A stretch of DNA of 64,000 bases. It comes from Verrucomicrobiota bacterium. GTDB lineage: Bacteria; Verrucomicrobiota; Verrucomicrobiia; Verrucomicrobiales; Akkermansiaceae. Positions within the stretch are counted from its first letter, which is position 1, and each line of letters opens with the position of its first letter. Both the position numbers and the translations under genes were made by a program. Below are positions 3,470 to 23,139 of the stretch, one piece after another. The notes below the pieces were generated by a model that was not told the origin of the DNA, did not search any database, and saw only the letters and a list, made by a program, of their open reading frames with translations. Location: positions 5,181 to 69,180 of the forward strand of contig JBAXLW010000002.1 of the NCBI GenBank assembly GCA_037134575.1. Reading direction: 5' to 3'.

Positions 3470-5521
3470 TCAGTCCACCAATGCCTTCAGCAGAGCATCC
3501 CGCGCATCCAAGTAATAGAGGATGGTGATCTTCGCCGCCATGTCGTCTGGCAGGTCGTTCAACTGCCGGCGACTGCTGATGGGCATCAGGATGCTTTGGG
3601 CACCTTTCTCGACGGCGATTTCGACGGCGGATACCGGGTTGAAGATCGTCTCGATGGAGCCGCCCAGATTCAGCCCACCGGTGACCATGAGGCCGCCCTT
3701 GATGCTTTTTTGGAGAAGCGATGAGCACAGAGCCAGCAGCACACCAACGCCGACGCCAGCACCACTTTTGGCACTGTCGAATGCCCGCAGTTGCACGGAG
3801 AACTCGTGCTGCCGGGGGTCGCGATCACCGACGAGTTCCTTGGCGCGGACGTAAAGGTTTTGCTCGGCGCAGCGCACGCTTTCTTTGAAAGACGGCGGAG
3901 CTGGCTGGTTCAAGATCTTCACACCGCTGCCCGGGCCTTCCGTGATATCTACCCGATAGAGACCGGGATTCTCTTCTCCCCCACCTGGCGACATTACCCA
4001 TACCTGCCCGGGCGGCAACGGGTCGGTGCCGATGCTGTCCTCGCTGTAAAGCTCGGGCGTGGATACGAATTTCTCCACACCTTCCTCGCCCAGCGTGTAG
4101 CTGAACTGGGTGTTGCGGAATTCTGCGGAGCCGATGCGCTTCTGCTGCTCCTTGACACGGCGGCGGCACTCCAAGCCAATGCGCAGCGCCCATTCCAAGA
4201 CTTCATCCGAGACCGGAACCTCTGGGTTTGGTGAGACGAGTTTGATGAGGCCGCTTACCGTCTTCATCACGCCGGTCGTATCGCGGCCGCTGAGTGCTCC
4301 ACCGAGATGAACACGCCCTGTTATTACACTCTGGCGGCTCTGGCGTCTCAGCTGATTCCAGCATTCCGACAGGTAGTCGCTGACGAGGCCGAAGCGGTTG
4401 GTCAGCAATTCCCGGCTGACCTTCGGCACGTCCCAGCCGGGGAGGTAGGCGTGAATACGATCCATGAATGCGGTGTCGTCACGCATCTCCGCCGGCATTG
4501 GCCCGAACAAGTGACCGATGCGCTGCTGGTGCTGCACGTCCACATCGAAGTTACCGACCATGACCATTCCGCCATCCGCGCGAATGCTTTCCTTGCCACG
4601 GCTGAACTCACCGGACTCCATATAGCCCTTCATGATGTTCACGCCGTCCTTCTGGTCGAAGGAGACTCCGGAAATCTCGTCGAAGCAGACCACATCGTAT
4701 TGGCAGACCAATCCGCGCTGGCCGTTACCGTTATTGACGAACATCCGTGCCACCGAGGATTTGCCGCCGGAGACGAGGTGCGCATACGGAGAAATTTGTT
4801 GGAAAAGATGGCTCTTGCCGGTGCCCCGAGGCCCCAGTTCCACTACGTTATAGTTCCGCTCTACGAAAGGCACCATGCGAAGAAGGATCATATCGCGGCC
4901 TCGCGGTGTGAGTTTCTCCGGCTCCATGCCGATGCTCCGGATCAGGAAATCCTTCCATTCTTCCGTGGAGAAAGCCTCCCGCCCTGCATAGAGGGTCGGG
5001 AGCACCTCGCGCTTGGAGAGCTGGATCTCGCGCATGGATTCGATGCCAAACGGGCGAGGTGGCTTTTCCTGCGCGATCATCGGGTCGTAGGACAGTTCCA
5101 CTTCTGCATAGAAGCCGCCTGTTAGCATCCGCTCGTTGGCGTGGACCATCGCCTCGCTGATCCTCACATCCTTGAGCTGCAAACTCGGCAGCGTTGCGAG
5201 AAATGAGTCCGTTCCCGAATCAAGCCTGGCCGTGATGATGTCGATCAGTTTCACGTGCCCCTTGTCCTTGGCGCGTGCCTTGAACAGTTCGTGTTCCCCG
5301 GCACGGATGGTCTTTTCGCCCAGCTGCCGCTCTACGATCTTTAGCCCCTCCGCGATTTCCTCCTCGTCCACCGAGGAGCAGTAGCGGCCTAGCAAGAACT
5401 CGGCGACGTAGGTCGGGACGGGATATTGTCCTTTGAATTTCCGCACCAGGTCTTTGCGGACCACATAGCCTTCAAAGGCTTTGGTGGCGATTTGGTCGAT
5501 TGTATCCAGTGGTTCGCTCAT
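3470..5521 (-). CDS. brxL: BREX Lon-like AAA+ protein BrxL
   Basis: Walker A ELGPRGTGKSH, Walker B VCFDEIS, DTAFMDRIH and a C-terminal Lon-like domain in which the Ser/Lys dyad positions appear substituted. Start set at MSEPLD (5521), 4 nt after the pglZ stop. Confidence 0.9.
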   Translation of the reverse strand: MSEPLDTIDQIATKAFEGYVVRKDLVRKFKGQYPVPTYVAEFLLGRYCSSVDEEEIAEGLKIVERQLGEKTIRAGEHELFKARAKDKGHVKLIDIITARLDSGTDSFLATLPSLQLKDVRISEAMVHANERMLTGGFYAEVELSYDPMIAQEKPPRPFGIESMREIQLSKREVLPTLYAGREAFSTEEWKDFLIRSIGMEPEKLTPRGRDMILLRMVPFVERNYNVVELGPRGTGKSHLFQQISPYAHLVSGGKSSVARMFVNNGNGQRGLVCQYDVVCFDEISGVSFDQKDGVNIMKGYMESGEFSRGKESIRADGGMVMVGNFDVDVQHQQRIGHLFGPMPAEMRDDTAFMDRIHAYLPGWDVPKVSRELLTNRFGLVSDYLSECWNQLRRQSRQSVITGRVHLGGALSGRDTTGVMKTVSGLIKLVSPNPEVPVSDEVLEWALRIGLECRRRVKEQQKRIGSAEFRNTQFSYTLGEEGVEKFVSTPELYSEDSIGTDPLPPGQVWVMSPGGGEENPGLYRVDITEGPGSGVKILNQPAPPSFKESVRCAEQNLYVRAKELVGDRDPRQHEFSVQLRAFDSAKSGAGVGVGVLLALCSSLLQKSIKGGLMVTGGLNLGGSIETIFNPVSAVEIAVEKGAQSILMPISSRRQLNDLPDDMAAKITILYYLDARDALLKALVD

Positions 5522-5525
5522 AAAT

Positions 5526-7863: not shown

Positions 7864-10800
7864 TTACTTGCCGCTTAAGTTATGGAGTTGGAATGCATCT
7901 ACCCCTAGCGATTCCCTGCAAAGGTCAACTAGGTGTTCGTGGTGCGTGAAAAGGAAAATCTGCGTGCGTTTGGATAGGTCAGCGAGCTGCGGCAGGATGG
8001 CTTTGGTTCGGTCGTTGTCGAAGGTGATCAAAAGGTCATCCAGAATAAGTGGCATGGGTTCGTGTTCCTCCAAATGCCGGTCCAGTGCTGCCAGACGAAG
8101 AGCAAGGTAGAGTTGGTCACGAGTACCCTCGCTCATACCTTCAACTGCCACGGATGTCCCGCCCGGCCTGCGGCCTGCCAGCACCGGGACATCCTGATCA
8201 TTGAACTCGGCCGCCAAGCCCTCGAAGGCACCTTGTGTGATCTGCCGGAAGACCTCCCCGGACTTCTCCAGTAAAGGTGCCTGATTTTGTTCTCGGAATT
8301 GTTCGATCTGGTTCCTCAAAAACTGCGCGGACAAGCGTAACCGCATGAATTGGGCGGCATCCCGCCCCAAAGTTGCCAACTCGGATTCCGCCTGCTGCCG
8401 CAAATCGGCCGCAGCGTCTCCGGCTTTGGCCATCTCGTCACGTTGCCGGTTCAGCTCGGTCAACCCGGCTTGGACTACTTGGATCTCTGGCCTCTTGTCC
8501 AACAGGTTTACTTCCAGACGCGCTTTGCGTTGAGAGAGGTCATCAGCGTTTTCCGCTTGGACAAGACGAACAAACTCCTCCACTGACTGCCCCCTTGCCA
8601 AGCCTCCCAAGGTGTCCCGGATGTTTTTGAGCCGTTCCTCGATTGCCGCTTTTTTCTCCAGAGCAGCAAGCAATCGCTCCAGTTCCTCAATGGCGCTGAT
8701 TTTCGCAAGGGACATCAACCCGTGCAGGATTTCGGACGCATTGGTTTCTTCCTGTCGCGCGAGCGTCAGGTGAGTTTTTGCATCCTCGATCTGGGAGGAA
8801 ATCTGATCGTGCTCAGTCTGGGCTATCCGCGCTGCCGATACGACCTTCCATAAGGCAGCTTCCCGGGATTCTGTGGTTTCCGCTTCTACCCGCAGGGTGG
8901 TCGCTCGCTCGCTCACCTTATTCTCATAGTTAGCGATCAACTCTTGGGTCTTGTTCGCCTCGCCCGATAATTCCTTCCACTGATCGAATCTTGCGATTAG
9001 TGCCGCCCGTTCCTCAATTAACACTAAGCCGTTAGCAGGGGGAGTGTCGGCAGCCAAACCGGCCGACTTGCTCCGGGCCTGCCAGTTTGCGTTCGCTGCC
9101 TCGATCTCTGAGGAAATCGCAGCCGTTGTCTTGTTCAAACCCTTCAACTCGTCCCGCAGTTTCGCAAGCTGCTCGGTGATCAGCTTGCGTCGTCCAACCG
9201 TCTCCTCACCCTGCTGAAGAGATGTTTTTGCGGCTTCGTGCAGCACGGAATAGGACTTTGCCTCGGAGGTTCCCAATACCGCTTTCAGCGCAACAACGGC
9301 TCGTTGAATCTGTTCGGATTTGGAACGCAAGCCTTCTTCTGCATCGCGCAATTTTCCGAGGGTGTCCCGGAACTGAACCCAGCTTTCACGCCACTCCTCC
9401 ATCTCGTCCGGCGAGCGCGGCTGAAGGTCAGCTGGTGTCCATTCTTGCTGCCATGAAATCAGAGTCTCTGCCTTCGCCGCCTCTAACTGAGAGGCGGCCG
9501 CTTCGGTTTCTGTGATCTGATTCCGGCTGGTTAGAATTTGCATCCGCTTTTCTTCGGCCTGCGCCACTGCGTCCGCATCAAGGCGCAGTTGATCGGCGAT
9601 GTGATCTGCCGCTAAGATCGACAAGGGAAAGGCCTCTTCAAGGGGCAGCTCGGGATCCAGTTGCTCGTCAGCTCCTCCGCCTTTCCAATCCTTGAGCACC
9701 AGATGCCAACCGTGGTCCCGATGATGCCGCGCCTGGCTGAGCGATTCCTCTGTTGGCAACTCACCACGGCGCTCAAGACGTTTCAGATCATTCTCCAGCT
9801 TGGTGATGTTTGCATTCTCGTCGCGAATCTTTTTTGCGGTGGCTTGTAGGTCACGCTCCAGCTCAATGAGGCGGTCACGGAACTTCCGCAGTGTGGCTTT
9901 TGCGGGAACCTGAAGCTGTGATGCGGCTTCAAGATCCTGAGGTGCCCCATGCACCAGGGTGTGCTCGTCCTGAACTTTACGCGTCAGATTGACCACCGTG
10001 GTACGGGCGGCTTCCAGGGTTTTGTCGGCTTCCGTTGCCTCTGCGGCGACCGCCAATGCCGCTCTGAGCGGTTCCAGATCGGTTTCAGTCAGCGACTGCA
10101 ATTCGCTCTCATGCCCGTCGATCGCAGAGGTAGATTCCTCTACCTTCCCCACACTCGCCGCGTAACGTCCTTGTGCGTCGATCAAGGACTGCGCCGCAGC
10201 CTCCAAACCGAGACGGGCTGAGCTTCCCAGTCGCATGCCCTCCAGAACGTTAAAATCCCCCACGATTTCCAAACTCTCCATACCACTCAGCAAGGCCGGT
10301 TCAATGCCGGCCAGTTTGCTTTGCAGATTCGCCAAGGATTCCTTCCGCGTGCGAAAGGCACCCAAGTCCTGATGGAGGGCATCTAGCTCATCTTCGATCG
10401 CCAACACTTCCGGTACCGTCGCGCACTTGCCCAACCGCTCCTGATCTCGGGCGATCTGCGAAGCTAGGTCAGACAACTTGCGTGAAGCCTCAGCAGCCTC
10501 ATCGCGCGCGGTTCTGACGCGTTCCACAAAGTCACTCGCCACCTGCGGAAGCTCGGGCAGCTCGCGGAGCAATCGCAGCTCCTCGTTGAAACGGCTGACG
10601 GATGGCAGCGCATCCTCGCAACGGGTCATCCATCCGATGGCCACTTCGCACTCGGAAATTTCTTCGTCCAACCGGGCTTTCCGCGAGTTGTCCGCGTCAA
10701 GATTTCGGTTCAGCTCGTCCCAAACATCCGCAGCGACCACCGCCTCCCGGCTCTGTTTCAGCAGATCGAGGTAGCGTTTTACTGCCGGGCGGATAGACAC

Positions 10801-11340
10801 GTTGGCAGAGGCTCGTCCTTTGAAAAATCGCTCCGATTCCGCTTCCAAGGCATCCAGCACACGCTGAACCGGAGTGCCGCCAAGGCTCGCGGAGAAAAGC
10901 GCTTTGCCGATGTCTCCATCGCCTCCGAGAATCTGGCGCGCACCTTCGCGCAACTCGCTGCTGCCCAGCCCAAACATGGTGGAGAAAAAGCTCTGCTCAA
11001 CGTTTCCGAGAAACGGCAGAAGCGCATGGTCCGGCAAGGGATTGCCGCTCTCGTCCAGCAGGGTGTTTTTATTTCCCTTGCGCCGCTGGAAGCTCAGACG
11101 CACGCCGGCCCGGTTCGTGATCTCACCCAACAAGCGCATGTTCTTGTATTCATGCAGGAAATTGTCCGGCGACTGGCCGTGAATGCCATACAGCAAGTCC
11201 CGCGTCGCCCGCAAAAGGGAACTCTTGCCCGCTTCGTTTTTGCCGTAAAACACATGCAGGTCGTGTTCCCGGGGCGGAAACATGAGGTCGAGATTGGTGA
11301 AGGGACCGAAGGCCGGTATTTGCAAACGATCAAATCTCAT
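7864..11340 (-). CDS. yhaN: YhaN-family SMC/SbcC-like ATPase (AAA_27)
   Basis: MRFDRLQIPAFGPF start, Walker A YGKNEAGKSS, long coiled coil, signature MSEGTRDQLYLALRLA, Walker B LILDDLLITFD, H-loop FTHHEH. Start at 11340 overlaps the yhaO stop (ATGA). Confidence 0.9.
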   Translation of the reverse strand: MRFDRLQIPAFGPFTNLDLMFPPREHDLHVFYGKNEAGKSSLLRATRDLLYGIHGQSPDNFLHEYKNMRLLGEITNRAGVRLSFQRRKGNKNTLLDESGNPLPDHALLPFLGNVEQSFFSTMFGLGSSELREGARQILGGDGDIGKALFSASLGGTPVQRVLDALEAESERFFKGRASANVSIRPAVKRYLDLLKQSREAVVAADVWDELNRNLDADNSRKARLDEEISECEVAIGWMTRCEDALPSVSRFNEELRLLRELPELPQVASDFVERVRTARDEAAEASRKLSDLASQIARDQERLGKCATVPEVLAIEDELDALHQDLGAFRTRKESLANLQSKLAGIEPALLSGMESLEIVGDFNVLEGMRLGSSARLGLEAAAQSLIDAQGRYAASVGKVEESTSAIDGHESELQSLTETDLEPLRAALAVAAEATEADKTLEAARTTVVNLTRKVQDEHTLVHGAPQDLEAASQLQVPAKATLRKFRDRLIELERDLQATAKKIRDENANITKLENDLKRLERRGELPTEESLSQARHHRDHGWHLVLKDWKGGGADEQLDPELPLEEAFPLSILAADHIADQLRLDADAVAQAEEKRMQILTSRNQITETEAAASQLEAAKAETLISWQQEWTPADLQPRSPDEMEEWRESWVQFRDTLGKLRDAEEGLRSKSEQIQRAVVALKAVLGTSEAKSYSVLHEAAKTSLQQGEETVGRRKLITEQLAKLRDELKGLNKTTAAISSEIEAANANWQARSKSAGLAADTPPANGLVLIEERAALIARFDQWKELSGEANKTQELIANYENKVSERATTLRVEAETTESREAALWKVVSAARIAQTEHDQISSQIEDAKTHLTLARQEETNASEILHGLMSLAKISAIEELERLLAALEKKAAIEERLKNIRDTLGGLARGQSVEEFVRLVQAENADDLSQRKARLEVNLLDKRPEIQVVQAGLTELNRQRDEMAKAGDAAADLRQQAESELATLGRDAAQFMRLRLSAQFLRNQIEQFREQNQAPLLEKSGEVFRQITQGAFEGLAAEFNDQDVPVLAGRRPGGTSVAVEGMSEGTRDQLYLALRLAALDRHLEEHEPMPLILDDLLITFDNDRTKAILPQLADLSKRTQIFLFTHHEHLVDLCRESLGVDAFQLHNLSGK

Positions 11341-12593
11341 GCGGTGGTGTCTCCTTTCGTGCGAAGGGCTTCGAGGATGATGGCGCGCACATCTCCCATG
11401 AGTGCCGGGCGCTGGGCTGCGCTCCAATCGGTCTCGACCTCAGCCCGCAGCTCGGGCGGCAGCACATCGAGCATTTCGGTGATGTCACCGGGGAGGGCTT
11501 CCAGTTGCTGGGTGGCCTGTTCCAAGCTCTCCAGCACGGTCCTGGTCAGTGCGTCCCGCTCTGCCAGTTCACCCAGATCATAAACGGGAGAAGTGGCCAC
11601 TTTAATCTGCTCGATCCAGATGGCGTCCTCACCGAAATCCTGGGCGATGGCCTCGGTCTCCGCCCGGAAGCGCACGGTATCCCGGAGCAGGATTCCATGA
11701 AGCGGACTCGCTCCAGTCAGCACCAGCCGGGCCGCTAGTAAGCGCCCTTCGGCACTATCGATGGCCCGCGACAAGGCATCGCGGATGCGACGCAAGACTT
11801 CCGGTTCCTCTTCCAGCCCTGCGAGATCCACCTCGACCGCCGCCCAGCGCACCACATCCAAGTTGCACCAATCCGCCGACTCGACATCGAGGTGATCGTT
11901 CACGGTCACCAAGTAACATCCACGCGGGCCGGTTTCGCGAGCGTGACGCCCTTGGCAGTTGCCGGCGAAGACGATCCAGGGTTCCTCGCTGATTACCTCG
12001 GGTTGATGGATGTGTCCCAACGCCCAGTAGCCATATCCCTTCGCCTGCAAGTCCTGCACCGAACACGGGGCATAGGTGTCATGGCCGGGGCGTCCGGTTA
12101 GGCTGGTGTGGAGTAGTCCGATATTGAACATGCCTGCAACGGCCGCCGGATAGTCCTGCGCTAAATTCTCTGGCACCGCGCGGTGTGGGAATCCGCGCCC
12201 GTGGACAACGGCAGGGACGTCCGGAACCTCCTTCGTTTCCGCCGTGCGGGTGGAAAACAGCCGCACGTTGTCCGGCAGTGACAACTTTTTAGAAATGACT
12301 GAAGCGGCATCATGGTTGCCAGTGATCAGGAAAACAGGAACGCCCTGATTGTTGAGCCGGACCATCTGGCCACGGAAAAACAAACCCGTATTGTAGTCCT
12401 TCCAATCGCCATCATAGAGATCGCCCGCGATCAGGAGGAAATCGACTTTCTCCTCAATGGCCAAGGTCACCAGATTCTCAAATGCCCGGCGGGTGGCTCC
12501 ACGGAGCAGTTGCGTGGGCGCACCCTCATGCGCCTCCAACCCCCGGAGTGGGCTGTCGAGGTGGGGGTCTGCGGCGTGGATGAAGCGGAACAT
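11337..12593 (-). CDS. yhaO: YhaO-family SbcD/Mre11-like metallophosphoesterase nuclease
   Basis: FIHAADPHLD, IAGDLYD, GNHD, LLHTS, WALGHIH and AGNCQGRH motifs. Confidence 0.92.
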   Translation of the reverse strand: MFRFIHAADPHLDSPLRGLEAHEGAPTQLLRGATRRAFENLVTLAIEEKVDFLLIAGDLYDGDWKDYNTGLFFRGQMVRLNNQGVPVFLITGNHDAASVISKKLSLPDNVRLFSTRTAETKEVPDVPAVVHGRGFPHRAVPENLAQDYPAAVAGMFNIGLLHTSLTGRPGHDTYAPCSVQDLQAKGYGYWALGHIHQPEVISEEPWIVFAGNCQGRHARETGPRGCYLVTVNDHLDVESADWCNLDVVRWAAVEVDLAGLEEEPEVLRRIRDALSRAIDSAEGRLLAARLVLTGASPLHGILLRDTVRFRAETEAIAQDFGEDAIWIEQIKVATSPVYDLGELAERDALTRTVLESLEQATQQLEALPGDITEMLDVLPPELRAEVETDWSAAQRPALMGDVRAIILEALRTKGDTTA

Positions 12594-12598
12594 GGGTG

Positions 12599-13690
12599 TT
12601 AGGAAGTAATCGGAGGGGTTGGGTCTTGCAGGAGTTTCTGTTGTCGGAATCCTTCCAGCTCGCGTTCTAGCTCCTCGCGCAGCTCGGCCTCGCTGGGGAG
12701 GATGAGTTTGTATTTGGTGGCGAATAGCTTTTCGTTGCCATGAAGCACGGAATAGCGAACCACGGTTTCATCCTTGTTGGCGCAGAGGATGATGCCAACA
12801 GTCGGATCGTCCTCCGGTCCCCGCCGCTGGTCGTCGTAGAGGCGCACATACATGTCCATCTGCCCGATGTCCTGATGCGTCAGCTCGTCTGTTTTCAGAT
12901 CGAACAAAACGAAGCACTTGAGCAGGTAGTTGTAAAAAACGAGGTCGATGTAGAAATCCTTGCTCTCCGTGCTGTTGCGCTGCTGGCGGGCGACGAATGC
13001 GAAGCCCTTGCCCAGCTCCAAGAGGAAGGATTGGAGGTTATCGAGGATCGCATCTTCTAGCTTTGATTCCAGCAGGCGGCCTGTTCCCGGTAGACCAAGA
13101 AATTCCAGCATCACCGGATCACGGACGAAATCGCGGGGTGTCGGGTCCACTTCGGCGAGTTTGACATCGGCTTCAGTCAGGACGGCCTTGCGATCTTTGC
13201 TGGCGAGCAGGCGCTCATAATAAAGGGTGCTGATCTGGCGTCCGAGTTGGCGGGTGCTCCAATTTTGCTCCGCTGCTTCCTTGGCATACCACTCGCGGGC
13301 GCGCGGGTCATCAAGGCGCAGAAGAAGGCGGTAGTGGGTCCAGCTCAATTTTAGACGCAGTGCGTCTAAATTCTCAAACAGCCGGTAGAACTGAGTCATC
13401 TTGTAAAGGTTCGACGCATCAAACCCTTTTCCAAACTCCTCCGTAAGCCGCGTGGCCATTTGCACCAGAAGCCCGGCTCCATACTCGGCCCGGGTCTTGC
13501 CGCCTTGCTCGAACTCGACGATGTGCCGTCCCACTTCCCAACAGGTGCGGACTTGGACAAGATCCACCGCCCGCAGCGCTTGTTGCCGCGCTTGGACGAT
13601 GAGAGTGCGCAATTCGCCCAGCAAGGAGTCGAATCCCGGCTTGGCCCGCGGGGAGGATGGGGGTTTTGAAAGAGCGGTTTTCTTCTTCAC
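12599..13690 (-). CDS. yhcG: YhcG/DUF1016 PD-(D/E)XK nuclease
   Basis: WEVGRHIVEFEQGG, LSWTHY, RDPVMLEFLG, FLLELGKGFAFVARQ, FYIDLVFY, FDLK and DIGQMDMY motifs. Confidence 0.92.
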   Translation of the reverse strand: MKKKTALSKPPSSPRAKPGFDSLLGELRTLIVQARQQALRAVDLVQVRTCWEVGRHIVEFEQGGKTRAEYGAGLLVQMATRLTEEFGKGFDASNLYKMTQFYRLFENLDALRLKLSWTHYRLLLRLDDPRAREWYAKEAAEQNWSTRQLGRQISTLYYERLLASKDRKAVLTEADVKLAEVDPTPRDFVRDPVMLEFLGLPGTGRLLESKLEDAILDNLQSFLLELGKGFAFVARQQRNSTESKDFYIDLVFYNYLLKCFVLFDLKTDELTHQDIGQMDMYVRLYDDQRRGPEDDPTVGIILCANKDETVVRYSVLHGNEKLFATKYKLILPSEAELREELERELEGFRQQKLLQDPTPPITS

Positions 13691-16600
13691 CGGGTCGCCT
13701 CCTTCTGTGCCTTCGTTAGATGCACATCATTCACGCGATCTCCGGTGAAGGTGCTGCCTTTCCAGAACCAGGGGGACTCGGATTTTTCGCGTTGGGGTTC
13801 TTTGCCGCGGTCTTTGTCCCATTTGATGTTGGGCTTGGCGCGAAGGAGGCCGGCTCCTTTTTTGCCGCCGGGGAGGTCGGTGGTCATGAAGGGGCGGATG
13901 TTCATGCGGACGCCGTCGTTGAGGTCGGGGAGCCAGCCGATGGCCTGCTTGGAGAGCGGCTTCCAGCGGACGAAGAGGTCGTAGGGTGGTTCGCCTTCGA
14001 GGATGAGCTTGAGGCGGGTTTGGAGTAGCTTGGCGGCTTGCAGCTTGGCGTCACTGCCGGCCTCCTCAGCTTCCACGGCGGCTTGCTGGCGGCGGATCCA
14101 ATCGCCGAGGTAGGCGTAGGTGAGTTTTTCGAGGGTGGCGTGGGTGAGAGTGTGGTAGTTCACCAGCGCGCTGAAGCCGCTCTTGTGGCCGTCCCAGATG
14201 TGCCAGATGAAAGGGCGGTGGTGGAAGAGCGCGCAGTGCTGCTCGAAGAACTCGTCGCGCAGCCAGTCTTCGAGGGTTTCGGATTTACTGCCTTTCTTGC
14301 CGCCCGGGCCGGCGCTGGCGATGAGGGTGGGCAGGTCCAGCTTGCCCATGGCTTGAGCGAGCAGGGCGCGCAGGCGTTCGGCGGCGGGAGCTTCGCCTTT
14401 GGTGGCGGAGAGGCACACGATGCCATCGTCATCCGCCAACGTTTCCAAGCCATCCGGGCCGAGCGCCGGGCAATCGGGAAAACTTGAACCGGACTGGCGA
14501 GGCCACTGGTAGCCGAGCAACCGCGCCACGGCCACGTGCAACGGCTGGTCTGCACCGGCAGGGTGGCCGTTGAACAGCCATTGCGTCGGGTCGCTGGAAA
14601 ACGGCTTCGGCAATCCGTGCGGATATTTCTCCGCCGCCACCTTCTGCCAGTGCGCCAGGTCGAGGGGGACTTTGATCAATGTTGCATTCGTAACCATGAC
14701 CTTTTGATCAAGTGTTCGGACTGCGGTCGAGAAATCTGGTGAAGAGCAAAAGCACCAAAGAGCACACAAATCATCAGGTTCTCCCAGTGTTATCGCACTG
14801 ACGTTGCTGGAAAAAATCTCACCAGTATAAAGGGTGGCGGACAAGTTGCCGATTACTGAAACTGCCACACCTTTCTTTCCCCAACCAAGTTTGCCCCTAA
14901 ATGGGTTCTGTGATATTTCTGCGATTCCGCCACCGCCATCAGTCCAATACAGTATGCTTTGACGCCCACCGTAACAGTCTGTCGGGCACGATTCCTGAAT
15001 GAACTCCCACCCATTTGAGACGATTCCTATTTCCCAGAACCCTCGTCCTAGCCTCGGGTAGTCGCCTGTGGCCAAGCCTTGCCATGCGTCAGCCAACGTA
15101 GAAAGTTGTGGGCTATCTACCGAATTGGCTTGGTGGGTAATCCGACAATCAGGATTTTTTAGCTGCTCAGCCTGCCCCAGTCTTACAACCTCTGCATTCT
15201 GGAGTGCGATTGATTTCTCAATTGGACCTTTTTCATCAGCTACATCAAGTCCTGCGAACTCATGCTCTTGATTCGGCCGCCGACATTCGAGTGTGCAGAG
15301 CAAGATATTAAAGTCCCACATGGGAGTTTGAAATGCCTTTGGTCCTAACCGGGTGACAAAATTCCATGAAATATCACGAAGCAGTGTTTGCCGTAACAGC
15401 TTGTAGCTGCCGAGGGAGAGCCAATTCTGGGGCGTGACGATGGCTGTAATCCCACCGTTTGCGCAGAAGGTGAGGCATCGCTCAACAAAACAGGTAGCTA
15501 AGTCGGTTTTGGCTGTTGGATGGGCGCGTTCACAATAATCCATTAGCGTCGCCTCCTGCTTTGGCCTTCCCAAATATGGCACGTTGGTGGCGACGAGCGT
15601 GAACTGGCCGGCGAGAATTTCCGCCGCCTTGGCCAGGCCGCGCGCGGTCACGGCCATTTCATGCGCGGTGTCGTCCTTGGTCTCCTGCGCCAGCGCCTTT
15701 TCCAGCAGCGGCTGGAGTTCATGGAACGCGGCCACCAGCAAATCGCCCTCGCCGGCGCGCGGGTTGATGAGGCTGCCCAGCACCGCCGCCTTTTGGAACA
15801 GCCGGTAAAGCCGCTCCATGCCGCGCTGGAGCTTCTGGTTGTCGCCGGCAATCGCCAGCCAGTCGGCTTCGCGGGTGTTCGGCGCGAGGCCGGAGCAGGC
15901 CAGGTTCATCGCCGGCAGCTTGCAGTGGCCCACGCGCCGCCACGCGGCCAGCGCCAGGTTGAACGCGCCAATCTGCGTGCAGCGCGGGTCTATCTCCAAG
16001 CCGAAGAGGTTGTCGCGGATGACCGCCGCCACCGCCGCCGCTTCGTCCAGCTTTTCCTCGGCCAGGCGCAAGGCCACCAGCCGCTCGAACATCGCCACGA
16101 CGAAGTGGCCGCTACCCATGCAAGGGTCGAGACACTTGAGTTCCTTTGCCGTTTTCGGCCAGCCGTCAAAGGAGCCGGAGGCGGGTGTCCACTTGCCGTC
16201 CTTCTCGATAAATCGGAGATATTTCCACGGACACCCGGGGAGAGCACAGGATTGGCGGAGTTCGTCCTCGCTGGTGGCACTTTCCGCCAGCTTGGGGTTT
16301 GCGGCGAGGACTTTGCCGGCGTGCCATGCGCCGAGGGTGTTATCCAAGAGGAAGTCCACCATGTAATCCTCGGTGAACAGTTGCGTGACGGACGGCAGTT
16401 CATCCGCGCCGATCTTGTTGCCGGAGGCGTTTGACTCAATTTTTTTATCGGCCTGCCAGAACTGGTAGCACCAGCCGAGGCTGTCACCAGCAGTGAATAC
16501 ATCCCTCGGCAAATCGGTGACGAGAGCGATGAGCGGATTGCGATCCTCGACTGGCAGTTCCACTACGCCGGCCGGGTCGTCGGCGCGGAAGATCTCCGGT

Positions 16601-17025
16601 AGCTCGGCAGCGGCAAAGCGTGCGGCAACGGCCCAGGCATCCTTCAAGCCCTGGGACGGGGCGAGTTCCTCGCAGTCGTCCAGAGAGACAGCCACCCCGT
16701 GCTCCGGGGAGATAAGGAGATCGTTCGCCAGTAGATATTGGGCGAAGAGAATGCGGTGCCACTGGTCGTAGGCGAGCTTCTCCACAAGGTGAGTGATTTC
16801 GTAGCTGCCGCGTTTGGTGTGGCTCTCGCCATCGCCGAGCTGCCGTGCTTGCGCGCGGAGCCTGCGACGCAAGGTGCGCTGAGCCTCATCCATGTGCGGG
16901 TAAGGATCCGGCTCATGGACAGCGAGGGCTTTGAGGGACTTGCGCGCACCACCCGTGGCGATCTTGCGGGCCTGTTTGACGGCGCTTTCTAGCAGGCGGC
17001 GGTGAGCGGTGGTGAGAGAGTTCAT
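13687..17025 (-). CDS. pglX: BREX adenine methyltransferase PglX (Eco57I-like)
   Basis: TQLFTEDYMV, motif I LDPCMGSGHF, motif IV variant ATNVPY; located between brxC and pglZ. Confidence 0.9.
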   Translation of the reverse strand: MNSLTTAHRRLLESAVKQARKIATGGARKSLKALAVHEPDPYPHMDEAQRTLRRRLRAQARQLGDGESHTKRGSYEITHLVEKLAYDQWHRILFAQYLLANDLLISPEHGVAVSLDDCEELAPSQGLKDAWAVAARFAAAELPEIFRADDPAGVVELPVEDRNPLIALVTDLPRDVFTAGDSLGWCYQFWQADKKIESNASGNKIGADELPSVTQLFTEDYMVDFLLDNTLGAWHAGKVLAANPKLAESATSEDELRQSCALPGCPWKYLRFIEKDGKWTPASGSFDGWPKTAKELKCLDPCMGSGHFVVAMFERLVALRLAEEKLDEAAAVAAVIRDNLFGLEIDPRCTQIGAFNLALAAWRRVGHCKLPAMNLACSGLAPNTREADWLAIAGDNQKLQRGMERLYRLFQKAAVLGSLINPRAGEGDLLVAAFHELQPLLEKALAQETKDDTAHEMAVTARGLAKAAEILAGQFTLVATNVPYLGRPKQEATLMDYCERAHPTAKTDLATCFVERCLTFCANGGITAIVTPQNWLSLGSYKLLRQTLLRDISWNFVTRLGPKAFQTPMWDFNILLCTLECRRPNQEHEFAGLDVADEKGPIEKSIALQNAEVVRLGQAEQLKNPDCRITHQANSVDSPQLSTLADAWQGLATGDYPRLGRGFWEIGIVSNGWEFIQESCPTDCYGGRQSILYWTDGGGGIAEISQNPFRGKLGWGKKGVAVSVIGNLSATLYTGEIFSSNVSAITLGEPDDLCALWCFCSSPDFSTAVRTLDQKVMVTNATLIKVPLDLAHWQKVAAEKYPHGLPKPFSSDPTQWLFNGHPAGADQPLHVAVARLLGYQWPRQSGSSFPDCPALGPDGLETLADDDGIVCLSATKGEAPAAERLRALLAQAMGKLDLPTLIASAGPGGKKGSKSETLEDWLRDEFFEQHCALFHHRPFIWHIWDGHKSGFSALVNYHTLTHATLEKLTYAYLGDWIRRQQAAVEAEEAGSDAKLQAAKLLQTRLKLILEGEPPYDLFVRWKPLSKQAIGWLPDLNDGVRMNIRPFMTTDLPGGKKGAGLLRAKPNIKWDKDRGKEPQREKSESPWFWKGSTFTGDRVNDVHLTKAQKEATR

Positions 17026-17810
17026 GAAATTTGTGTCTCGATTATGGCGAGCAATTCGTTACGGGGATTGGTGGGAGATCTGTCGCGGCGGAGGTCTATA
17101 CCGAAGACGAATTGCTCTAATTTATCGGGTGCGACTTCGAGCTGGGCAGCCCAGTCGTTCATCAGCGTGACATACTCCACGTAGGCATTTGACTGGACCT
17201 CCGGATCGTTTTTCAAGCTGATGGCTTTGTATCTCGCCAGGGATGTATGTGAGGGGATCGTGAACAAATCCCGCGCTTCTTTGGTGCCTTTGGATTGGCC
17301 GCGGAGCGCGAAAAACGCGTTCGTCGTCCAACGGTCTAGAATCAAGGGCTTGGGATTCACCCGGGCGTCAGCGGCACCAACGAAGAAGAATATCTTCGTA
17401 AAGAAGCTCATTCCCACGCCCGGAATGGAGTTCTCTCCGCTGCTGCAACAACTGCGGAAAGCTTCTTCGAGCTTCCCACCCTTCACCAAATCCTGAATGC
17501 GATTCAATCGGGTAAGCAATTCAGATTCATCGACAGCGAGCACTTGCTGTAGGCGCATGTCTTTTCTGGTGTCGATGTAGCCCCAGACAAAGGTGGCCAC
17601 CGCAGCAAGAACTGGATCTGTCCATTCGGCGTAAAGTTTCACCAGATCGTCTCGTTGGAGGGAGTTCAATGGGAACGCGTGGTAAAGGCGCTGCATCTGT
17701 GGCTGCTGCCAGCTGAGATAAGCATTGCCAAATTTCGGCAATGTTTGGGCATTCAGTCCGAGAATAGCCTTTGCACGTTTTTTCAGGTATGGTGGGAGGG
17801 TAGATATCAT
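17022..17810 (-). CDS. Putative OGG-fold (HhH) DNA glycosylase-like protein
   Basis: TFVWGY, HhH-like IPGVGMSFFTKIFFF, PLILDRW and Y..YV.LM...A pattern, all resembling OGG-like proteins. 4-nt overlaps with both neighbours. Confidence 0.65.
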   Translation of the reverse strand: MISTLPPYLKKRAKAILGLNAQTLPKFGNAYLSWQQPQMQRLYHAFPLNSLQRDDLVKLYAEWTDPVLAAVATFVWGYIDTRKDMRLQQVLAVDESELLTRLNRIQDLVKGGKLEEAFRSCCSSGENSIPGVGMSFFTKIFFFVGAADARVNPKPLILDRWTTNAFFALRGQSKGTKEARDLFTIPSHTSLARYKAISLKNDPEVQSNAYVEYVTLMNDWAAQLEVAPDKLEQFVFGIDLRRDRSPTNPRNELLAIIETQIS

Positions 17811-20800
17811 AGAATTACGGGGCCGGTTTTGAGTTGTGCTTCCACTTGCTGGCGGACTTGGGCGAACCAGGGGTCGAGGTCGGCTATGGTGTGGAGTGTG
17901 GCGGATGGCAGGGTGATGCGGACGGCCTCGGGTTCGAGCAGGGTGCTGGCTTCTTGCAGGGCGCGGGCGAATCGCTGGGGCACGGCGTCGAGCAGGTTGT
18001 GGCGGTCCGCCAGAGTGCGGGCCTGCAAGGCGGTAAGGATTTCCTCGTCGGTGCCGATGGCAGCCTTCGCCGGTGGCGTGAGCTGGAAGGTGTTCGTGAG
18101 CGTCGTGCGTTGCTCATCGCTGAGGCGCTTCCACAGATCGGAGGCGGCGAGCTTTTCCTCACCGGCCACAAAGGCTGCGGAGAGGTCGCCCTGGAGTTTT
18201 CCAAGTTCGGTGCGCAGGGCGGTGGTGAGCTGTTTGATTAACTCCGGCAGTGGGTCGGGATCAGCAAGCAGGTTCCGGCCACTTGTGATGGCGGCGATGG
18301 AGGTGGCACAGGCCACGCCTTCGGGAAGATCCTTGGCAAAGGCCTGAAAAACCTCCAGGCTCTCCCACTCCGGCCAGCGCTTGGCGATGGCGTCGGCGCT
18401 CTTTTTCCACGTGGTGAGATCGGCGGTGATGGTGTCCTTTTGCTCGTGGAGCTTGAGGAGTTGCGCGTTTCCACTGAGCAACTGGAGATCTTTTACGCTC
18501 CGAGTCGAGGGAGCCTCCGGGCGTGGAGCCTCGCCACCAGCGGAGTCCGCGAGGGCGAGGAGTTTCTGGAGAAAAAGCGCGGCGGCTTCCGGTTCCTTGC
18601 CGTTCTGCGTGGTGACGGCGAGCTTCTGGAAGAGCGCCTTGAGATCGAGCCGCTGCTGCACATTGAGAGGTGGCACATCCACGTAGTAGTGGGCGACACC
18701 CACCTGGTTCTGTGGCAGCGTCTGGGCTTGCACCGGGTTGCCATTCACGGTGGCGCGGAGGTTACCGGCGACAAGCATAACGTAGAGCGCACCGTCAATG
18801 GCATCTTGCGGCCAACCATACGGCGTGGACTTGAAAGCCTCTCGGATGTCCTTGCCCTTCTTCCCGGCACCGATGAGATCGAGAACCCTCCGGCAGACCG
18901 CGTGCTTGGTGACATCACCCTGAAAACTGACCTGGGCGAGTGCGCCCACATCGCCGCCACGCGCCTTGGTGACCACGACACCCCAGTTACCGTGATCCGC
19001 CTCGGAGAACTGCGGGAAGAGACGCGCCATGGCGCTATCTGCCGAGTCCTGCACCTTGTCGGCTAGCTCGATACCGTTGGTTTCCTGACCACCACCAAGG
19101 AAGACCTTGGAGCCGGCAATAACATGCCCGAGCAACTCTTGGATTCGATGACCCGCTACTTGCAGATGGGTCTCGATCGCCTTGCGCGCCTCGATAGCCT
19201 CCGGCGTGTTGGCAGCGCCATGGGAGTTGAGCGTTTCCTGAGCGGCGATCTGGGAGGCGATAGCCTGCTTCAATTCCTCATGATGGAGGCGCGGCAGGAA
19301 GCCGAAGAGCATGGGGCTATCGACCCCGGCGGAGCGTGCGTCGTTTAGAACGGATTTTTCGTCATCGCTCCAACCTTCCCGCAACCAGAGGGTGACCTCG
19401 TCGCTGCTTAGACTTGGTCGGCTGGACGACAGCTCGAAGGCCAGCTTGCGCGGCCAGTTGGAGGCACCCTGCTTCAGGGAAACCGGCTTGAGAGCCTGCT
19501 TGGAGCCGTCCCTAAGAAGTTCCGCACGCTTGGAATTGATGCGTTCGTCGTCGTTCAGGGCAGTGGTGCGGCGGCGATTGAAGTCGTGCGTCCAGACAGC
19601 CCCCTCGCGTGTCTGGAGGCGGAACTCCTTTTCCACGGGCATCAGCTGGCCGTTTTTCACCAGTTCCTCAAGGATCACGGGAACCTGCTGATCCAGCTTG
19701 GGTCTATCCTTTTTTAGGTCGCTCACGAGGAGATCGACCAAGGTCTCGGCATTGGCGCGAACCCCATCGTCGGCACCGGGGGTGCGGGGCAGTTTTCCGA
19801 TTAGGAAGACGAGGGCGCAAATGCTGGAGCGGAGGTCTCCCTCAGGCGTGCCGTCGCGCAACTTACGGATGATCTCGTCGTATTCCCGCTCCAGCTCGCC
19901 GGAGTTGAGGAGATCGGTGGAAATCTGGTCATAGATGAAATCCGCCGGGACGACGGTGCCCACCGATGCGGCGGCTGTCTCCCGGGTGGCCTCGAAGACG
20001 ATCTGCATCTGCGAACGGAGCTGCGCCTTGGTGCCGGAGTGGTCGGTATTGCGCAGGACTTTTTCCCAAAACCGCCTACGGGTGGGGAGAAGCGGGTAGT
20101 CGGCGACGAAGAACTTCTCGTCAGCATGGGTGGCGGCGAGCCGGGAATCCTGGAGGTGGCGGGCAAGCTCGCCTTGGTTGTCTTCCATGCACTTGGCGAT
20201 GGAGGCTTCCTGCTCGGGCTTCTTGCGCAGGACAGTCTTGCGGATGACGTTTTCCACATCAGCGTCGGAAAGGGGGACTTTCACCGTGAAACGGGCTTGG
20301 AGGCGCTGAAGGCTGGGAGTGGTGTTCAGCGCGGACTGGCCGGTGCCGACAATCAGAAGGCGGCTCGCCAAGTCGGTGCTGCAATGCTCGGCAATTTCCT
20401 GGACGTCATTGGCGCGTTGGATTTTCTCGCCGATGAACTGCTGGATTTCGTCCACCACAAGCAAGGTGCAGGGAAGCGTGGTGCCATCGCCATAGACCTG
20501 CTTGAGGAGTTCGAGGGTCTGCTTGATGGTGGGTGAGGTGATCTCGGGCCACCCGGTGCGGATCGCATCCTGGACGTTGGCCAAGGTTCCGTATTTGGGA
20601 TCTGCAGCCAGCAGCGCCTCGGCCAGCGGCACAGAGTAGTTCATGCTCTCGACCTCTTCGAGCAATTCGCAATCGGCCGCTTTGAGGGACTGCGCCACGG
20701 CGGTCTCTAGCCCTGAGGATCGGAGCCACAGCATGAATTTAGCATGGGCGAGATCTTCCGGGAGGCCGGCGGATCGCAGGACAAGCTGGACGAAGGCCAT

Positions 20801-21244
20801 ACGCACATTGTCCATGGAGCCGGCACCGAGTGTGCCTGCGGCCGCACGCAGACCACCCAATGGCTTGCTGCGGGTGCTGAGTTCTTTGAGCAGATCGGAA
20901 ACCTCGCTCGGAAGTTTTACCAAAGAACGGGCGGTGGCACCGTCGGCGAACTGATAGTCCTCCCACAGGTAACGCAGCACTTTGACGAGGTGGGATTTAC
21001 CGCTTCCGAAGAAACCGCTGACCCAGACGGCCTTCTGTTCCGGCTGCGCCAAGCCGTCGAGGTAAGCCTTGAGGATACGCTCCAACCCGCGCGCGTATTC
21101 GCCATCGCAGACGAAAGTTTCCAACTCGAAGCGGAGCGTCTGGATCTGGCGCGTGTCCTCCCCGATTTCGGAGACCTTGGAGACGCCATTATTGAGCAAC
21201 TCCAGGGTGGTGGGGTCACGGAAGTAAAGTTCGCGGTTTGTCAT
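17807..21244 (-). CDS. brxC: BREX P-loop ATPase BrxC
   Basis: VWVSGFFGSGKSH, LLVVDEIQQFIG, YPLLP, PYGWPQDA; 1145 aa. Confidence 0.92.
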   Translation of the reverse strand: MTNRELYFRDPTTLELLNNGVSKVSEIGEDTRQIQTLRFELETFVCDGEYARGLERILKAYLDGLAQPEQKAVWVSGFFGSGKSHLVKVLRYLWEDYQFADGATARSLVKLPSEVSDLLKELSTRSKPLGGLRAAAGTLGAGSMDNVRMAFVQLVLRSAGLPEDLAHAKFMLWLRSSGLETAVAQSLKAADCELLEEVESMNYSVPLAEALLAADPKYGTLANVQDAIRTGWPEITSPTIKQTLELLKQVYGDGTTLPCTLLVVDEIQQFIGEKIQRANDVQEIAEHCSTDLASRLLIVGTGQSALNTTPSLQRLQARFTVKVPLSDADVENVIRKTVLRKKPEQEASIAKCMEDNQGELARHLQDSRLAATHADEKFFVADYPLLPTRRRFWEKVLRNTDHSGTKAQLRSQMQIVFEATRETAAASVGTVVPADFIYDQISTDLLNSGELEREYDEIIRKLRDGTPEGDLRSSICALVFLIGKLPRTPGADDGVRANAETLVDLLVSDLKKDRPKLDQQVPVILEELVKNGQLMPVEKEFRLQTREGAVWTHDFNRRRTTALNDDERINSKRAELLRDGSKQALKPVSLKQGASNWPRKLAFELSSSRPSLSSDEVTLWLREGWSDDEKSVLNDARSAGVDSPMLFGFLPRLHHEELKQAIASQIAAQETLNSHGAANTPEAIEARKAIETHLQVAGHRIQELLGHVIAGSKVFLGGGQETNGIELADKVQDSADSAMARLFPQFSEADHGNWGVVVTKARGGDVGALAQVSFQGDVTKHAVCRRVLDLIGAGKKGKDIREAFKSTPYGWPQDAIDGALYVMLVAGNLRATVNGNPVQAQTLPQNQVGVAHYYVDVPPLNVQQRLDLKALFQKLAVTTQNGKEPEAAALFLQKLLALADSAGGEAPRPEAPSTRSVKDLQLLSGNAQLLKLHEQKDTITADLTTWKKSADAIAKRWPEWESLEVFQAFAKDLPEGVACATSIAAITSGRNLLADPDPLPELIKQLTTALRTELGKLQGDLSAAFVAGEEKLAASDLWKRLSDEQRTTLTNTFQLTPPAKAAIGTDEEILTALQARTLADRHNLLDAVPQRFARALQEASTLLEPEAVRITLPSATLHTIADLDPWFAQVRQQVEAQLKTGPVIL

Positions 21245-21792
21245 GGTGTGAGAAAACTTTCGGTGGTGGTGATCGGGGCGGCCATGTAGTTGAAGCCGTC
21301 GCGGGCGTCCATGAATCGGTAGATGTTCCCCTGGTATTCGCCGGGGAAGAGGACGAGCAGGCGGCCGGTCACGCTGTCTTCGACCCGCTCGATCAGGCTA
21401 GAGACCCGCATGTAGTCGAAGAGCGTGGCGAGGCCGGCAATGGTTACGACGCTGTTCTCATCGGATTGGGAGCAGGCTTCGCTCACGAGTTCCACAGCAC
21501 GGTCTTCCAGTTTGCTCCCGGCCTTTAAATGCTTCGGATCTTTGAAGATGGATTCACGGTATTTGTGGCTCGCGAGGTACTCTGGAAAAAGACCCGTGAG
21601 ATCGACCGTGGACCACTCGTGGCCGGCTCCAAGCGTGAGTTCCTCAAACTGTGGGAGACGGGCGCGGATGCGGCGCTCCTCCACCGGTGGATAGACAGCG
21701 AACCAGACACGCTGTTTCCCGGCGACGTTCCCGGACCACGGCAGGCTGACCTGGCGGGAGTAGTTGGCGAGGAGTCGGTCGATGGCATTCAT
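21241..21792 (-). CDS. brxB: BREX protein BrxB (DUF1788-like)
   Basis: Size, position directly upstream of brxC, and LLVLFPGEY...YRFMDARDGFNYMA C-terminus. Confidence 0.75.
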   Translation of the reverse strand: MNAIDRLLANYSRQVSLPWSGNVAGKQRVWFAVYPPVEERRIRARLPQFEELTLGAGHEWSTVDLTGLFPEYLASHKYRESIFKDPKHLKAGSKLEDRAVELVSEACSQSDENSVVTIAGLATLFDYMRVSSLIERVEDSVTGRLLVLFPGEYQGNIYRFMDARDGFNYMAAPITTTESFLTP

Positions 21793-22598
21793 GCTTGTGG
21801 AACTTGTAGGTCGGAGAACAATGGAAAACTCAAATCCACCACCTCGCCGAGGACACGCAGGTTAAGTCGGCCGGCGCGGTGGGCTTCGAGAGCCAGTGCT
21901 TTGGCGCGCTCGGGGGTGAGATCCAGCAAACGACACCATGGACTGGAAAAGGCCATCTGGCCGTGATGGCCGGTGAGATGGCCCAAAAACAAGGCAAGGG
22001 TTACTGAAACTGGGCTTGCCTGAACCCGGTGACGGGTCTTTTTTGCTCGTCCGACGAGATGCCCAGTTTGAGTCCATGACGAGCCAGCGTTACGGGAAAC
22101 ATTTCCTTTGCTGTTGTCGGAATACTGATTCGGGAAACTGGCCTCCACAGCAGCAGCGACAGCCCCTTGTTCCAATAAATCTCCATCCGAAAGCTCTAAA
22201 ATCGCATCTGCAGTGGCACGGAATAAAGGGTCTCTTGCCCAAGCCAACTGCAGAGCAAGCAGCGGAAGACTCGTCGGGTCTACCTCATATAGCCTGCGCA
22301 GTAATTGGAAAATAGGAACGTTTTCGTCCAGCACGTAGAGTTCCCGCAAGTGGCGTAGCGACTTCTGCCGTGTGCTTACCGTTGTCTTCCCCAGAATATT
22401 TCGCTCGCAAATCGCATCGCGATAATCCGCAGCATTGGAACCCCGTGGCATCGCTTGCAAAAGAACGTCTAGTTCCTGCAGCATGATCGTTCTGCTAATG
22501 TGCGTATTCCCCGCAAAGAATTTCAAACCAAACTCCGCCAAATTTGGAGAATCTTGGGGCAAGTAATGCTGGATGAGCGAATAATGCTGAGTGGACAT
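21789..22598 (-). CDS. BrxA-like first gene of the BREX operon
   Basis: Position upstream of brxB with a 4-nt overlap; helical protein with WARDPLF and SSWTQTGHL motifs. The call rests mainly on context. Confidence 0.6.
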   Translation of the reverse strand: MSTQHYSLIQHYLPQDSPNLAEFGLKFFAGNTHISRTIMLQELDVLLQAMPRGSNAADYRDAICERNILGKTTVSTRQKSLRHLRELYVLDENVPIFQLLRRLYEVDPTSLPLLALQLAWARDPLFRATADAILELSDGDLLEQGAVAAAVEASFPNQYSDNSKGNVSRNAGSSWTQTGHLVGRAKKTRHRVQASPVSVTLALFLGHLTGHHGQMAFSSPWCRLLDLTPERAKALALEAHRAGRLNLRVLGEVVDLSFPLFSDLQVPQA

Positions 22599-22603
22599 GA
22601 AAT

Positions 22604-22894
22604 CTATTTTTCTTGCGCCTCCCAGTTTCCCAGCACTTGGCCGAGGACGACGGTGTAGGTGAGGTTGCCGTGCTCAAGGTCTACATCGGGTAGGAACTCG
22701 TCGTCGAGGGCGGAGAGAAGGGGCTGGACGTTCAATTCATCGAGGCCGGAGCCCTTGAGGATGATGACTGTGCCGGCGATCGTGCCATTGGTGAGGTAGT
22801 GGAGGTCGACGGCCGCGACATCATTCCCGCCGCGCTGGGCGAGAAATCGCTCGGACGAGGGCGTGCGGAGGGTGCGTTTCCAGGTGAGGTTCAT
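22604..22894 (-). CDS. Hypothetical protein (96 aa)
   Basis: Clean ORF coupled to DUF4236 (4-nt overlap) and 5 nt upstream of brxA-like. Confidence 0.7.
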   Translation of the reverse strand: MNLTWKRTLRTPSSERFLAQRGGNDVAAVDLHYLTNGTIAGTVIILKGSGLDELNVQPLLSALDDEFLPDVDLEHGNLTYTVVLGQVLGNWEAQEK

Positions 22895-23139
22895 GATAGA
22901 GAGGTGACGATCCAGTGAGTGAATGCCAGCGAGGCAGGGATGGCGGCGAGCAGAACAAGGCAGCCGCTACCTCGGTAACCGACACCCGTGCCGGGTAGGC
23001 TGAAGGCGGAGTAGCGACGACCACGGGCACTTGTGCCGACGCGGAATCCCTTGCCGCCGACAGAATAGCCGACGCCGGACTTGCTCAGGTTGACCCTGAA
23101 TGGCCCGAAGTTAACTGATTTTCGATAGAAAAAGCCCAT
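22891..23139 (-). CDS. DUF4236 domain small membrane protein
   Basis: MGFFYRKSVNFGPFRVNLSKSGVGYSVG...SLPGTGVGY signature and a C-terminal hydrophobic segment. Confidence 0.85.
   Translation of the reverse strand: MGFFYRKSVNFGPFRVNLSKSGVGYSVGGKGFRVGTSARGRRYSAFSLPGTGVGYRGSGCLVLLAAIPASLAFTHWIVTSLS

Follow-up and report, generated by a model that had tools for sequence, protein, structure and literature searches.

A gene located between brxC and pglX in a type 1 BREX (bacteriophage exclusion) operon is proposed here to encode a single-gene, modification-dependent base-excision effector against phages. The operon lies in a 64,000-nucleotide stretch of DNA, referred to below as the window, from a Verrucomicrobiota bacterium of the Akkermansiaceae (assembly GCA_037134575.1, contig JBAXLW010000002.1, positions 5,181 to 69,180 of the forward strand). 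The open reading frame (ORF) in question encodes a protein of the Pfam family PF21790, named "OGG" after 8-oxoguanine DNA glycosylase. Judged from its sequence and its genomic setting, the ORF is carried as exchangeable cargo, and its product would complement the BREX system. We put the probability of this reading at about 55%. The protein is stand-alone, its gene occupies a slot for autonomous effectors, and an invariant Asp and an invariant Lys are found at a hairpin resembling that of helix-hairpin-helix (HhH) glycosylases. Taken together, this makes an active modification-dependent glycosylase the most economical explanation.

The brxC-pglX junction

The ORF overlaps both of its neighbors by the four nucleotides ATGA, so that its start codon is entangled with the stop codon of brxC, and its TGA stop codon with the ATG start codon of pglX. 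It is most likely co-translated with the BREX operon. The GC content of the ORF is 0.520, which is below that of both flanking genes (0.613 for brxC and 0.600 for pglX). The GC content at third codon positions (GC3) is 0.608 for the ORF, 0.751 for brxC and 0.712 for pglX. The two overlaps and the GC content lower than that of brxC had been pointed out in a first-pass annotation of the window, as had the motifs IPGVGMSFFTK and PLILDRW in the translated product. All of these features are present at the positions listed in Table 1.

The order brxC, OGG-like gene, pglX is not restricted to the window. It is kept in relatives that are 72-84% identical (loci L005-L009 and L061-62), some of which do not contain the insert of YhcG and SbcCD genes present in the window. 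The same order is found at the locus L010, where the homolog of the ORF product is 39% identical and BrxC is only 24% identical to that of the window. The gene next to the L010 homolog encodes the N-terminus of PglX (PADLOC, E=5e-27). In the phylogenetic tree, the two groups embedded in BREX operons fall into separate, well-supported clades.

The same BrxC subtype (39-41% identity) occurs without any PF21790 gene in all five other genomes of the phylum in which it was found. In four of these five sister loci, the interval between brxC and pglX is 1-3 kb long and is filled by other genes. The cargo following brxC is an SpbK-like TIR protein at L071 and an SpbK-like TIR protein together with a Schlafen/AlbA_2-HATPase protein (HATPase_c_4) at L074. 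At L073 it consists of a DUF4062-HATPase protein (HATPase_c_4) and an unknown protein, and at L072 of HEC-02A/B. At the fifth locus, L070, the cargo begins right after brxC with PsyrT/PsyrA, which are followed by further genes; no pglX was found in the 8.7 kb downstream. Since the sister loci hold varied defense genes in this interval, the junction is regarded as a cargo slot for autonomous defense modules. The view of the first-pass annotation that the gene has been inserted in the interval separating brxC from pglX thus holds, and the insert is accessory. The ORF does not belong to the type 1 BREX core, as none of the five sister loci that share this BrxC subtype contains it and no BREX model matches its product. 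A comprehensive survey of BREX systems from 2026 mentions no glycosylase, OGG or HhH component. A general linkage of the PF21790 family to BREX was also considered and rejected, because neither BrxC nor PglZ is encoded beside the gene in 11 other genomes.

Family membership and distribution

The product of the ORF matches PF21790 with 106.8 bits (cut-off 27, E=1.5e-30, hmmscan), and the match spans profile positions 22-201 of 201. Pfam describes the family as "Putative 8-oxoguanine DNA glycosylase OGG-like protein", and its Streptomyces members are named "8-oxoguanine DNA glycosylase OGG fold protein" by NCBI and UniRef. The database label of the ORF product and of its close relatives is only "hypothetical protein". 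In the Pfam scan the protein, 262 aa in length, showed a single domain. PF21790 is matched by all 119 relatives as well, and the typical member is a stand-alone protein of roughly 260 aa; a GIY-YIG or FokI nuclease domain is present in only three of the 119. Relative to PF21790, proteins of the clade to which the ORF product belongs are longer by about 35 residues at the N-terminus and 25 at the C-terminus. In a collection of 5.8 billion proteins, 26 homologs were found. At the family level, about 980 of 1.84 billion representatives clustered at 50% identity matched at E<=1e-3, and 319 matched at E<=1e-10. The PF21790 family is real but small.

Genes of the family were detected in three genomes out of 401 from the host phylum and in nine out of 401 from that of Streptomyces. 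The 14 control genomes contained none, and no phage-borne homolog was found in 50,697 phage records. The host genome contains separate Nth-like and MutY-like genes. Outside BREX, the neighborhoods of PF21790 genes are often related to defense; one such gene adjoins genes for a HEPN protein and an RNase_T exonuclease. This rare, defense-linked distribution argues against a housekeeping role in 8-oxoguanine repair. No conserved partner gene was found among the Streptomyces members. Since there is no conserved partner and fusions to nucleases are rare, the product of the ORF would have to act alone.

Conserved residues and predicted fold

A helix, a G-x-G hairpin, a second helix, a Pro-rich loop and an Asp capping the next helix form the signature of the HhH-GPD glycosylases. 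The AlphaFold2 model of the ORF product (pLDDT 94.4, pTM 0.91) is all-helical. According to DSSP, the helix 114-120 of the model is followed by a loop ending in I-P-G-V-G (129-133), the helix 134-147, a Pro-rich loop (148-158, containing NPKP) and D159, which N-caps the helix 160-174. The h-P-G-h-G hairpin, the Gly/Pro-rich loop and the conserved Asp of HhH-GPD proteins are therefore found in the ORF product, at the motif level only. Across 119 representatives, with identity down to about 22%, only four residues are invariant: W76, K139, D159 and F236. Nearly invariant in the same set are R53, G77, G131, T138, F143, I157, Y210, E232, G237 and the stretch N248-P249-R250. D159 is located at the place expected for the HhH-GPD Asp, which makes it a candidate catalytic residue. 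The invariant K139 is located four residues, that is one helical turn, past the position of the canonical catalytic Lys, in the same helix.

The motif was compared with known glycosylases by means of hhalign, for which alignments of Nth, MutY and AlkA/OGG1 were built from genomes of the same order and three OGG2 sequences were taken from the PDB. None of these comparisons reached significance. With Nth, MutY and AlkA/OGG1, the G-x-G hairpin was the sole aligned region, and D159 was paired with the catalytic Asp of Nth and MutY. The OGG2 alignment was co-linear: GLGPAFFTK...LILDQ was paired with GIGYKEASH...AIIDR, and the C-terminal helix Y...LE..F with Y...LDLYIW. In this register D159 corresponds to the catalytic D147 of MjOgg, and K129 of MjOgg corresponds to the variable S135.

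The Streptomyces relative P0175, the best match to the Pfam model, was modeled as well (pLDDT 94.8). Three different OGG enzymes were among its top 30 Foldseek matches, with the best template modeling (TM) scores and root-mean-square deviations (rmsd) of the list, though below significance: Thermotoga maritima Ogg (3n0u; TM 0.37, rmsd 7.6 Å), Methanocaldococcus jannaschii Ogg (3knt; TM 0.39, rmsd 6.8 Å) and mouse OGG1 (7z5r). HHpred links among the domain at the C-terminus of END nucleases, PF21790 and EndoIII have been reported independently (10.1101/2025.03.31.646159). An HhH-GPD/OGG-type fold of the ORF product is considered probable, although the evidence is at its weakest on this point. 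The first-pass annotation had assigned an HhH-containing OGG fold and had suggested a structure search against OGG enzymes. The class named by Pfam and NCBI and the invariant Asp at the expected place agree with this assignment. The structure search returned OGG enzymes, below significance, with the model of the relative and not with that of the ORF product itself.

Relation to known defense systems

Several elements of the proposal have been described before: the action of glycosylases against phages (Brig1, 2024), HhH-type Dag proteins (2025), PF21790-like sensors in END nucleases (2025) and BrxU in the brxC-pglX slot (2021). END nucleases likewise contain a PF21790-like domain of the EndoIII/OGG type and target hypermodified phage DNA (Yee et al., 10.1101/2025.03.31.646159). 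In END proteins a PLD, PD-DExK or McrB module is fused to this domain, whose catalytic residues are reported to be absent. In contrast, the product of the ORF is stand-alone, has no nuclease domain and keeps the invariant Asp and Lys.

The Dag proteins (Getz et al., 10.1101/2025.10.29.685425) resemble the ORF product, a putative HhH protein, in that they are small, encoded by a single gene, of the HhH type and without detectable sequence similarity to repair enzymes. They are also mobile or linked to defense, are encoded by DNA of lower GC content and have Lys, Asp and Trp as pocket residues. These HhH glycosylases act on phages with 7-deazaguanine in their DNA (10.1101/2025.10.29.685425). The Dag proteins originate from Vibrio integrons, and no BREX location has been reported for them. 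In a comparison by description, the Dag hallmarks that match are the contextual ones, linkage to defense or mobile elements and a lower GC content.

BrxU (PMC8565348) is encoded at the same place as the ORF, between brxC and pglX in the BREX locus of pEFER, and attacks modified DNA that escapes BREX (PMC8565348), which is the logic proposed for the ORF. BrxU is a GmrSD type IV, NTP-dependent nuclease of the DUF262/DUF1524 type and has no fold relationship to the ORF product. Brig1 (PMC11078745) is a single-gene DNA glycosylase defense whose homologs are frequently located near BREX/Pgl genes. It has the alpha/beta fold of uracil-DNA glycosylases (UDG) and excises alpha-glucosyl-hydroxymethylcytosine, whereas the model of the ORF product is all-alpha and so does not belong to the UDG fold. 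The enzymes of the OGG2 type (MjOgg 3KNT/3FHF and TmOgg 3N0U) are the closest solved structures to the P0175 model, with non-significant TM scores of 0.31-0.39. They share with the family, in co-linear order, the G-x-G hairpin, the Asp motif I/L-x-D-[RK]-[HW] and the C-terminal helix. The ORF product differs from them by extra N-terminal helices, a variable residue in place of the catalytic Lys and a non-housekeeping context.

Proposed function and alternative explanations

The product of the ORF is suggested to flip non-canonical phage bases, hypermodified and plausibly purines, into a pocket that would be lined by K139, D159, W76 and F236. The glycosidic bond would then be cut with D159 as the general base. 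K139 may act as a displaced Schiff-base nucleophile, which would make the enzyme bifunctional; otherwise the enzyme would be monofunctional and work through D159. The abasic sites or nicks so produced would block phage replication, and phages whose DNA modifications evade BREX would thereby be covered. The first-pass annotation had likewise proposed a base-excision arm directed against hypermodified phage genomes that BREX fails to stop. BrxU in the same slot, Brig1 and Dag provide precedents for this role, whereas the PF21790-like domains of END nucleases have been reported as inactive. A modified guanine as the substrate, which that annotation had named, is a guess.

A number of results weigh against an active glycosylase. 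The position of the canonical catalytic Lys of OGG and EndoIII, two residues past the hairpin G-h-G, is occupied by S135 in the ORF product and by S, A, P or V across the family. Foldseek searches of the PDB and BFVD with the model of the ORF product returned no glycosylase (best E=0.66 and 0.36, respectively; TM<0.35, and TM<0.2 for the best PDB match). The OGG matches of the P0175 model were non-significant, with TM scores of 0.31-0.39, rmsd values of 6.8-7.6 Å and E values of 1.6-4.5. The PDB sequences were searched with hidden Markov models built from alignments of 21 and 119 sequences, and only spurious matches to ribosomal proteins were obtained. In the Pfam scan, PF00730 was absent from the family members even at E<=10, and no bridging HhH-GPD, AGOG or OGG match was found. 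The hhalign probabilities against Nth, MutY and AlkA/OGG1 were 1-6% (P=0.006-0.04), which is non-significant; the comparison with the three OGG2 sequences was non-significant too, and all hhalign runs together gave 0.2-6% (P=0.006-0.27). The ORF product had no match in PADLOC or NCBIfam, including their BREX models. A place in a cargo slot does not by itself reveal a mechanism. PF21790 is the top HHpred match of the END C-terminal domain, which has been proposed to be a catalytically inactive sensor (10.1101/2025.03.31.646159). No publication on a stand-alone PF21790 protein was found in the literature, and the searches turned up no experiment on any such member.

The END precedent and the loss of the canonical Lys would fit a silent base-flipping sensor. 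Such a protein would recognize modified or foreign DNA and pass it to the BREX machinery (BrxC/PglX/PglZ) or to a nuclease in trans. The tight translational coupling to brxC and pglX, the recurrence at one BREX junction in two lineages and the few fusions of family members to a GIY-YIG or FokI nuclease domain point in the same direction. However, invariant D159 and K139 would not be expected in a mere binder, and most family members are stand-alone proteins encoded outside BREX with no conserved partner. Moreover, autonomous defense modules fill the slot in the sister loci, and the loci L007-L009 keep the gene without the YhcG nuclease. We regard a sensor as unlikely. The PD-(D/E)xK nuclease YhcG as an obligate partner, which would make the pair an END nuclease in trans, was rejected on account of the same three loci.

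That none of the five sister BREX loci with this subtype contains the gene also argues against an integral BREX-coupled effector. This would be a "restriction glycosylase" that acts on unmethylated BREX motifs, or one dependent on methylation by PglX, and it would supply the missing destructive step of BREX. The ATGA coupling on both sides and the position conserved in two divergent BREX lineages are consistent with it, and the restriction mechanism of BREX is still unresolved. Nevertheless, the 2026 survey contains no such component, most family members are encoded away from BREX, and the GC content of the gene differs from that of its neighbors. An integral effector of this kind is very improbable. 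A looser wiring into BREX, in which a glycosylase or reader works with BrxC and PglX and either extends recognition to hypermodified DNA or adds a base-excision "restriction" step, is granted a small chance. Under this reading, it would be understandable that two distinct clades of the family became translationally coupled at exactly the brxC-pglX junction despite a BrxC identity of 24%.

The name given by Pfam and NCBI and the weak structural resemblance of the relative to OGG enzymes would suit an ordinary base-excision repair enzyme for 8-oxoguanine or alkylated purines without a role in defense. Against this stand the occurrence of the gene in under 3% of the genomes in two phyla, its absence from all 14 control genomes, the variable neighborhoods rich in defense genes, the lower GC content, the presence of Nth and MutY elsewhere in the host and the missing canonical OGG Lys. 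A plain repair function is thus given very little weight. It is also conceivable, though quite unlikely, that the fold is not HhH-GPD, that the G-x-G...D motif is coincidental and that the gene is defense cargo with a mechanism other than that of a glycosylase. The failure to obtain a significant structural or profile link favors this view. The assignment by the Pfam curators, the HHpred links of PF21790 to the END C-terminal domain and EndoIII, the three OGG enzymes with the best TM score and rmsd among the top 30 matches of the relative, and the co-linear motif alignments speak for an HhH-GPD fold. A modification-dependent glycosylase agrees better than each of these alternatives with the conserved residues, the distribution and the observations on the cargo slot.

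If the ORF product is an active glycosylase, a widespread family (about 980 clusters at 50% identity) would join the newly recognized class of base-excision anti-phage effectors. The PF21790 fold would then serve in two ways, as an enzyme here and as a sensor in END nucleases. The brxC-pglX slot of BREX-1, which accommodates BrxU, TIR/SpbK-like proteins, PsyrTA, HEC-02 and the present ORF, is a convenient site in which to search for new defense genes. The content of the slot bears on the prediction of which modified-DNA phages infect BREX-carrying hosts.

The BREX operon of the window

The type 1 BREX operon of the window has two inserts, and every gene of the locus is assigned to the minus strand, with pglZ termed divergent (Table 1). 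The OGG-like gene is one insert. The second is a cargo block in the pglX-pglZ slot, which is missing from the relatives L007-L009 that retain the OGG-like gene. An Mrr-like gene and a HEPN-Hsp70 gene are located downstream in the window. The product of pglZ stayed below the Pfam PF08665 threshold (E<=1e-3) in both the protein scan and the whole-genome search. Since it is recognizable as PglZ only through orthologs with faint PglZ hits, BREX detection based on Pfam would miss it.

Table 1. Features of the OGG-like gene and of the surrounding BREX operon (positions in the window).
Feature	Position	Strand	Basis
OGG-fold (PF21790) stand-alone ORF, 262 aa, P0001	17022..17810	minus	ATG start; translation; Pfam; AlphaFold2 model
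ATGA overlap, brxC stop / ORF start	17807..17810	minus	sequence
ATGA overlap, ORF stop (TGA) / pglX start (ATG)	17022..17025	minus	sequence
HhH-like hairpin and start of second helix, IPGVGMSFFTK, residues 129-139	17394..17426	minus	sequence; conservation; DSSP
Codon of invariant K139 of the ORF	17394-17396	minus	
PLILDRW, residues 155-161 of the ORF	17328..17348	minus	sequence; conservation; DSSP; hhalign
Codon of invariant D159, candidate catalytic Asp	17334-17336	minus	
brxA	21789-22598	minus	PADLOC BrxA, 270 bits
brxB	21241-21792	minus	PADLOC BrxB, 198 bits
brxC, 1145 aa, upstream neighbor of the ORF	17807..21244	minus	NCBIfam NF033441, 734 bits; PADLOC PDLC02489, 1309 bits
pglX methyltransferase, 1112 aa, downstream neighbor of the ORF	13687..17025	minus	PADLOC PDLC02528, 1476 bits; Pfam Eco57I and N6_Mtase
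Second cargo block, pglX-pglZ slot (YhcG/DUF1016, SbcD-like, SbcC-like)	7864..13690	minus	
YhcG/DUF1016 PD-(D/E)xK protein	12599-13690	minus	Pfam/PADLOC scans
SbcD-like protein	11337-12593	minus	Pfam/PADLOC scans
SbcC-like AAA_27 protein	7864-11427	minus	Pfam/PADLOC scans
pglZ, divergent	5526-7853		orthologs 38-94% identical carrying PglZ hits
brxL	3470-5557	minus	Pfam BrxL hits

Directly upstream of brxA, at positions 22604-23139 of the window, a DUF4236 gene (82 aa) and a gene encoding a 96-aa protein are located. Both are kept with the BREX operon in the relatives L005 and L007. The pair may have a leader or regulatory role that has gone unrecognized in this BREX subtype.

Further observations at related loci

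In the sister locus L073, a 323-aa protein without a family match is encoded on the minus strand (L073:6229-7200). Homologs of about 400-440 aa (P0017-P0025; L010:10001-11239) contain a conserved N-terminal segment of ~100 aa (MPxVTHQNN...) without a Pfam match. This segment is connected to the PF21790 domain by an acidic, proline-rich linker of low complexity. One of the long homologs, P0018, is likewise embedded in a BREX operon.

Other members of the family are found in different surroundings. A homolog with 56% identity is located beside a cluster of DnaB_C, Nmad3, Nmad2, WYL and DUF2779 genes (L055:1206-6270), which is a nucleotide-modification-associated conflict system. In Streptomyces olivochromogenes, a PF21790 gene has a type I-E CRISPR-Cas cassette on one side and a gene with a NACHT domain on the other (L075:7001-10741); the region is likely an actinomycete defense island. 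The conjugative plasmid p1 of Vibrio echinoideorum (L063; NZ_AP025485.1, 21168-23217) encodes a 399-aa "hypothetical protein" of the PF21790 type, whose gene is located downstream of that for an AbaSI family restriction endonuclease at a distance of 82 bp. The two neighbors may form a pair of defenses, both of them modification-dependent. A WYL gene and an Hsp70-family gene are located near the pair on the plasmid.

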